Virus record (IMG/VR): IMGVR_UViG_3300029043_000145
Strand: one strand, 5' to 3'
DNA length: 4,336 bases
Origin: a virus
Lineage: Duplodnaviria > Heunggongvirae > Uroviricota > Caudoviricetes
The position numbers were made by a program, and so were the translations under genes. The notes beneath the pieces are model-generated. The model saw nothing but the letters and a program-made list of their open reading frames with translations, was not told where the DNA came from and searched no databases. This document shows, one piece after another, positions 698 to 721 of this stretch. Each line of letters begins with the position of its first letter. Position 1 is the first letter of the stretch.

Positions 698-721
698 TAG
701 ATGATAGTTATTTATCATCTA
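698..721. promoter_or_regulatory. Candidate recombination core (attL-like): 8-bp inverted repeats flanking an 8-bp spacer
   Basis: TAGATGAT (698-705) and ATCATCTA (714-721) are perfect reverse complements separated by AGTTATTT. The site lies just upstream of the phased repeats and about 165 bp upstream of int, matching the usual layout of tyrosine-recombinase core sites. Assignment as the crossover site is inference. Confidence 0.35.

Follow-up and report, generated by a model that had tools for sequence, protein, structure and literature searches.

The window analysed here is a stretch of 4,336 nucleotides that begins in host Escherichia coli chromosome and continues into an inserted element. 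Over positions 1–900 it is 99.6% identical to a genome of E. coli ST361 (L002), in which the whole element can be read. The genes of the window are arranged as follows.

1–184, 3′ end of macB, host E. coli chromosome.
About 257–480, minus strand, cspD, host.
630–704, plus strand, yljB, a small open reading frame of 24 codons annotated in K-12-like and filled genomes; window coordinates are from the L002 offset.
885–2123, plus strand, int, a 412-aa tyrosine recombinase with an N-terminal arm-DNA-binding domain (Pfam).
2543–2752, plus strand, gene for a small helix-turn-helix protein of the AlpA family (Pfam Phage_AlpA, 3.8e-16).
2894–3067, minus strand, Arc-like repressor gene.
3204–3407, rightward, Icd-like gene.

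The window also holds a DUF4222 gene and the start of a primase gene, which form the downstream part of the element. The int product matched Phage_integrase (2.7e-18, nearly the full model) and Arm-DNA-bind_3 (1.4e-16), and its translation shows the motifs GCRTTELR, HDIRHT and RVYNH. The AlpA-family protein is a candidate directionality or activator factor of the element. In L002 the element measures 10.8 kb, ends just upstream of clpS and carries SSB, major capsid, head decoration and small-terminase genes as cargo, with no tail or lysis genes. As the organisation typical of a PICI we took int and alpA reading rightward, a replication module (primase), a size of about 10–15 kb and no full phage gene set. 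Here, int and alpA both read rightward, a primase gene is present, the element is 10.8 kb long and a full phage gene set is lacking. From its gene content and position, the inserted element is very probably a PICI of the capsid-forming kind and of the EcCIIHE3034 type, lying between cspD/yljB and clpS.

Three other features of the window were recorded. In cspD, at about position 316, a run reading GGCCCC in L002 and K-12-like genomes has one C fewer, which shifts the frame after about codon 57 and alters the end of the open reading frame; either a sequencing error in the homopolymer or true loss of an intact cspD could account for this. Where macB and cspD converge, positions 196–224 form a 12-bp inverted repeat without mismatches, AAAATGCCAGCC/GGCTGGCATTTT, an ordinary hairpin that resembles a bidirectional terminator. 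Finally, the segment 3062–3122 contains repeats of ACATGGTAATTACC (at 3064 and 3094) and a degenerate third copy, each with the palindrome GGTAATTACC. They sit at or just upstream of the 5′ end of the Arc-like repressor gene and before the rightward Icd-like gene, and look like operators of the switch of the element.

Positions 698–721, between yljB and int, read TAGATGATAGTTATTTATCATCTA. The preliminary description had singled out 8-bp inverted arms, TAGATGAT (698–705) and ATCATCTA (714–721), around AGTTATTT, and these are present exactly as described. Complementarity runs one base beyond each of these arms, and an imperfect extension reaches 17 nt at 82%. Three overlapping features were defined here (strand not applicable).

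698–721, palindrome with perfect 9-bp arms, TAGATGATA (698–706) and TATCATCTA (713–721), and a 6-bp spacer, GTTATT.
701–718, 18-bp quasi-direct repeat, ATGATAGTTATYTATCAT, common to attL, attR and the empty attB, with one mismatch, at 712.
701–711, exact attP/attB identity block of 11 bp, ATGATAGTTAT, bounded by heterologies at 700 and 712.

To set the chance expectation, 300 dinucleotide-preserving shuffles of the window were used. Perfect 8-bp arms with a 6–8 bp spacer were expected 0.20 times per window and were present in ~16% of the shuffles (n = 300), and 9-bp arms with a 6-bp spacer were expected 0.017 times per window. The palindrome by itself is only moderately unlikely and no more than suggestive; its significance comes from comparative data.

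We compared window positions 1–900 with 5,426 complete E. coli genomes by megablast. Matches were found in 5,424 of them, only 369 of which covered at least 80% of the query, and in the empty-site genomes (about 5,050 of the 5,424) the match ended at base 718, among the matches listed. About 7% of complete E. coli genomes have an element at the cspD–clpS site. The K-12-like empty site (L001) reads gatagATGATAGTTATCTATCATgtggag (in another excerpt, gatagATGATAGTTATCTATCATgtggagtag), and filled genomes read gatagATGATAGTTATTTATCATctagtgttcg at the left junction and ataaATGATAGTTATCTATCATgtggagtag at the right junction. In L002 the right end of the element, ataaATGATAGTTATCTATCATgtggag, lies 10,792 bp downstream and is followed by clpS. 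The same right-end arrangement was found in L003, L004, L005, L014 and L023, whose cargo modules differ. At position 4336 the window stops short of the right end, and attR was inferred from these near-identical genomes. A near-identical repeat, as anticipated for a left attachment site, is present at the other end: ATGATAGTTATCTATCAT occurs at attR of L002–L005, L014 and L023 and once in L001. Furthermore, the breakpoint between host and element falls inside the palindrome (BLAST end at 718, first mismatch at 712) rather than more than 50 bp away, in agreement with the placement of attL in the preliminary description. The stop codon of yljB (TGA, 702–704) is at the edge of the crossover region; because this codon belongs to host-side DNA or to the identity block, integration does not disrupt the yljB open reading frame.

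The two junction types are far apart in one further genome. In E. coli CREC-629 (NZ_CP024815.1), an attL-type sequence (about 3829452–3829540) and an attR-type sequence (about 3766315–3766435) are separated by ~63 kb and the element probe matches the record at 6 places, a pattern that suggests an insertion that is composite or tandem, or that contains another mobile element.

Junctions were then read in eight sequences (the window, L002, L003, L004, L005, L014, L023 and L012), whose elements carry at least three different capsid/packaging modules. Base 712 was T in every attL or attP read and C in every attR or attB, a constant partition that could partly reflect shared ancestry, since the filled genomes are not independent integration events. 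At base 700 the host side had G and the element side A, and base 718 was T or G in attL among elements with 97–99% identical integrases. When a synthetic attL with C712 and a synthetic attR with T712 were used as BLAST queries, no genome gave a perfect match, and junctions of the window type showed no exception; the best full-length matches to these swapped-allele junctions carried exactly one mismatch. The exchange must fall within 701–711 because the identity of attP and attB is bounded by the heterologies at 700 and 712. These junction comparisons show site-specific insertion at a fixed position with 11 bp of identity, and place the crossover within ATGATAGTTAT.

The left and right junctions predict an attP junction of ataaATGATAGTTATTTATCATctag in the excised form and an attB junction of gatagATGATAGTTATCTATCATgtgg. 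The predicted attP junction was found in NZ_CP148328.1 (circular, 10,790 bp), which joins ...gctataa with ATGATAGTTATTTATCATCTAG, and at position 95 of the IMG/VR contig L012, where it is internal, so that the reciprocal product of the insertion exists in two deposited sequences. NZ_CP148328.1 (L011) was deposited as plasmid pZ1323HEC0475-3. It contains a whole PICI with the same integrase and attP, no host DNA and cargo that includes a ClpP-like protease/capsid fusion gene, and the record opens with base 1 of the att core; the assembly appears to have captured a satellite in its excised or replicating form. L012 (IMGVR_UViG_3300019373_000108, 1–10780) begins with 94 nt of P arm, an attP core with T712 and the whole element; after the element come the P arm, an attR core with C712 and clpS-side host DNA, and its first 97 nt recur at 10475. 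This arrangement fits either a tandem dimer or an assembly that mixes excised and integrated forms. Most relatives in IMG/VR begin at the int gene, without attL. Another viral contig, L013, was rejected as a chance match in AT-rich, unrelated DNA. A scan of the genome contigs for the attL pattern GATAGTTATTTATCANNTAGTGTT gave no match, and an integrase search of the same contigs gave only two loci, 25% identical and irrelevant. Taken together, the adjoining tyrosine recombinase gene, the breakpoint, the flanking repeat and the attP junction agree with the original proposal of a tyrosine-integrase core, and 698–721 in all likelihood covers the attL core, the left junction of the integrated PICI.

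The site itself has been published. Table S1 of Fillol-Salom et al. (2018; PMC6092414) gives ATGATAGTTAT as the ‘att site core’ of EcCIIHE3034 and EcCI18098, with the att gene cspD–clpS, so window 701–711 is the published core at the published locus. The window element resembles these two islands in its cspD–clpS locus, its core ATGATAGTTAT, its size class (10.5–10.8 kb) and its int–alpA order, and it is a near-identical further copy, not a new site. The published entry describes the direct repeat only, with no half-sites, overlap or arm repeats. A literature search on the core sequence returned unrelated primer matches only, and searches on EcCIIHE3034 and on a satellite integrase at cspD–clpS gave no match in main texts; the information is in the supplement.

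To place half-sites and overlap within the core, we reconstructed attP and attB of four further sister elements, inserted at roxA(ycfD)–phoQ, inside yifB, at abgR–smrA and inside tqsA. Their att sites comprise the EcCICFT073-type ycfD(roxA)–phoQ site (GGACATATTT), tqsA (ATAACAGCA), lysR(abgR)–smrA and the yifB-inserted type. The sister integrases are 66–81% identical per domain, and seven attP reconstructions from the five types are collinear over about 330 bp (MAFFT). The sister PICIs share an attP scaffold with TAGTGTT, TTGTTC pairs and two copies of GGTGTAGTTAAT in both arms at near-constant distances, but differ in the 7-bp centre and the host half-sites, and hence in their chromosomal targets. 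In all five types the core fits KATAAAW-N7-WTTTATM-nnn-TAGTGTT, in which the ATAAA and TTTAT columns are invariant and the central seven are type-specific. Counted from TAGTGTT, the attP/attB identity block spans −19 to −9 in the cspD–clpS type, −17 to −8 in roxA–phoQ, −20 to −11 in yifB and abgR–smrA, and −19 to −11 in tqsA. The intersection of the five blocks is exactly N7, bounded on the left by a single type and on the right by three. In addition, the roxA–phoQ attP is a perfect GATAAAA/GGACATA/TTTTATC dyad, the cspD–clpS attB is a perfect 7+7+7 dyad (GATAGAT/GATAGTT/ATCTATC), and the two heterologous positions, 700 and 712, lie at equal distances from the dyad centre at 706. Carried over to the window, the comparison gives the following features.

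696–702, strand not applicable, inferred host core-type half-site B, GATAGAT (the attP C site there reads TATAAAT).
703–709, strand not applicable, inferred overlap GATAGTT, at most 7 bp, the only columns inside all five identity blocks.
710–716, strand not applicable, inferred element half-site C′, ATTTATC, which matches WTTTATM of all sister attP sites.
720–726, plus strand, TAGTGTT, the invariant start of the P′ arm in five att types and the alignment anchor.

The comparison of the five att types predicts, with fair confidence, an overlap at 703–709 and half-sites at 696–702 and 710–716, in a model that assumes one register for all five integrases and no tolerance of heterology.

This assignment differs from the layout first proposed, in which the 8-bp arms served as half-sites around an overlap at 706–713. 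The part of that proposal that stands is a tyrosine-integrase core at attL; its layout is probably wrong by ~3.5 bp. We consider it unlikely that the half-sites are the arms 698–705 and 714–721, or ATGATA and TATCAT, with exchange in 706–713 or 707–712 around a centre at 709.5. Such a parse can draw on a palindrome that is perfect over 9 bp in the window, on the inner arms ATGATA/TATCAT, which recur around 709.5 in attB, attP, attL and attR of the cspD–clpS type, and on the attB arms, which extend to 7 bp (ATGATAG/CTATCAT). However, it would put base 712 inside the overlap, yet attP (T) and attB (C) differ there, are never mixed, and the T always stays with the element side. It would also put base 718 in the right arm, where T and G both occur among elements with near-identical integrases: L004, L005, L014 and L023 have G at 718 and have partly lost the palindrome, with integrases still 97–99% identical. 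Moreover, the four sister att types have no equivalent dyad at the register centred on 709.5, whereas the register 3.5 bp leftward, with its centre at 706 and its 7-bp spacer at 703–709, is kept in all of them and is perfect in the roxA–phoQ attP. The 9-bp palindrome is a hybrid, with a left arm of host DNA and a right arm whose outer CTA is element DNA; only a recombinant attL that has T at 718 carries it in perfect form, and attB and attP retain the inner 6–7 bp only. Several dyad registers coexist because attB and attP are both AT-rich and built from GATAG/ATGATA units. The visible perfect palindrome is a by-product: in this variant the hybrid of host and element DNA is, by coincidence, complementary to itself over 9 bp.

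It is also improbable that the dyad is primarily a host element, such as a regulator-binding site ahead of clpS or a structure where yljB ends, that the satellite merely exploits. The K-12-like empty site does carry the perfect 7+7+7 attB dyad, and 4,769 of the 5,147 matching records were at least 99% identical (best match) to a probe whose host part carries attB. However, conservation in E. coli is ~99% throughout the intergenic region and so is not specific here, and a scan of 480–900 found no promoter- or terminator-like signal at the site. Sister attB sites keep the half-site register in unrelated host sequences, so the symmetry points to the integrase; a host role would in any case be compatible with an integrase core. 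It is barely credible that the palindrome arose by chance in AT-rich intergenic DNA and plays no part in recombination: the shuffled windows with 8-bp arms speak for this, but the rarity of 9-bp arms with a 6-bp spacer speaks against it. The junction mapping already contradicts it, since the palindrome contains the junction of host and element, the direct repeat that flanks the element and the att core in the literature.

The DNA between the core and int supplies candidate arm sites.

723–738, plus strand, first TGTTCG repeat pair (723–728, 733–738), candidate accessory or arm-type sites adjoining the core.
796–811, plus strand, second TGTTCG pair (796–801, 806–811); CTTGTTCS-N3-TTGTTY is kept in five att types.
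838–861, plus strand, tandem GGTGTAGTCAAT GGTGTAGTTAAT, 24 bp upstream of the int start codon.

On the P side, TTGTTC repeats are followed by two copies of GGTGTAGTTAAT and, after 71–74 bp, by the core; in L002 the TGTTCG motif occurs three times in this P arm, on the attR side. The P′ arm consists of TAGTGTT, the second TTGTTC pair and two copies of GGTGTAGTYAAT about 24 bp before the int start. Across the five att types the tandem pair hardly varies in either arm, and the TGTTCG family is likewise conserved. The N-terminal domain of the integrase and AlpA both vary between att types. The tandem GGTGTAGTYAAT pairs are the best candidate for integrase arm-type sites, and the TGTTCG pairs may be recognised by the integrase, by AlpA or by some other factor. 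An IHF-consensus scan returned one site, at 633–645, not above chance, and the promoter and terminator scan of 480–900 gave no convincing int promoter. In the int–alpA intergenic region, ~120 bp upstream of alpA, window 2404–2420 (ACGAACcttagCGAACA) repeats, in inverted orientation, the paired TGTTCG motif seen in the P′ arm; because of this copy, a TGTTCG-binding protein may also regulate alpA.

Sequences that look like arm repeats also appear among published PICI cores. PMC6092414 Table S1 lists CGGTGTAGTTAATGGTGTAGTTAATT as the ‘att site core’ of EcCIDI14, and this sequence is the tandem arm repeat (compare window 838–861) found in both arms of the five att types; it is probably not the crossover sequence. 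The same table lists PICIs at the yejM site with two copies of TTTGTAGTTATACG as cores, which share TGTAGTTA and may also be arm repeats.

In the reaction that we propose, the P4-like tyrosine integrase (885–2123) recombines the circular attP with a chromosomal attB that lies where yljB ends, in the interval from cspD to clpS. Its C-terminal domains would bind the half-sites and exchange strands across the overlap, as suggested by the domain content and by what is known of lambda-Int-like enzymes, and its N-terminal Arm-DNA-bind_3 domain could bridge to the arm repeats, either the two copies of GGTGTAGTYAAT per arm, the TGTTCG pairs or both. Binding at the P′ tandem pair could also autoregulate int, because this pair lies 24 bp upstream of the gene. 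Autoregulation of int has been described for the KplE1 IntS system.

Phage lambda Int acts on COC′ and BOB′ with a 7-bp overlap, and its N-terminal domain binds arm-type sites. The window system is similar in its heterobivalent tyrosine integrase with an N-terminal arm-binding domain (Pfam), the predicted inverted core-type half-sites and overlap of at most 7 bp, the repeats in both arms and the nearby gene for a small accessory protein. It differs from lambda in having an integrase of the P4-like/DUF4102 group (Pfam Arm-DNA-bind_3), outside the arm-binding family of lambda, and arm repeats that are tandem 12-mers and TGTTCG pairs, one pair lying only 6 bp from a half-site. With P4 and CP4-57 it shares a P4-like integrase, an AlpA-family helix-turn-helix protein and downstream Icd-like and primase genes. 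P4-like integrases usually target the 3′ ends of tRNA or tmRNA genes, whereas the window integrase targets an intergenic dyad at the end of a small open reading frame, and its cargo is of the PICI/capsid-forming kind, not P4 genes.

One relative of the abgR–smrA type was found in a different host context. L052 (IMGVR_UViG_3300029733_000113, about 1–274 and the end) has an integrase and attP of that type with the overlap ATCGTGA, and its attL reads ...catcgctGTGAttttata, in which about 4 of the 7 overlap bases match. It may represent a secondary site or a diverged attB in another host.

These results confirm that the island in the window is a genuine integrated PICI, whose left junction looks intact and lies at a site already published as specific to PICIs. 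They leave the knowledge of tyrosine integrases unchanged, and the only new information is a refinement, the comparative case for a 7-bp overlap and conserved half-sites in five sister integrases. This refinement would aid the annotation of PICI boundaries and could guide excision PCR or retargeting design. We give an even chance to the idea that the five PICI integrases are retargeted mainly by swapping the 7-bp overlap cassette, with modest adaptation of the core-binding domain. If this is true, GATAGTT (703–709), not the visible palindrome, defines the target of the window element, and the five att types would form a natural, closely related panel for studying, and perhaps engineering, site switching by heterobivalent integrases.
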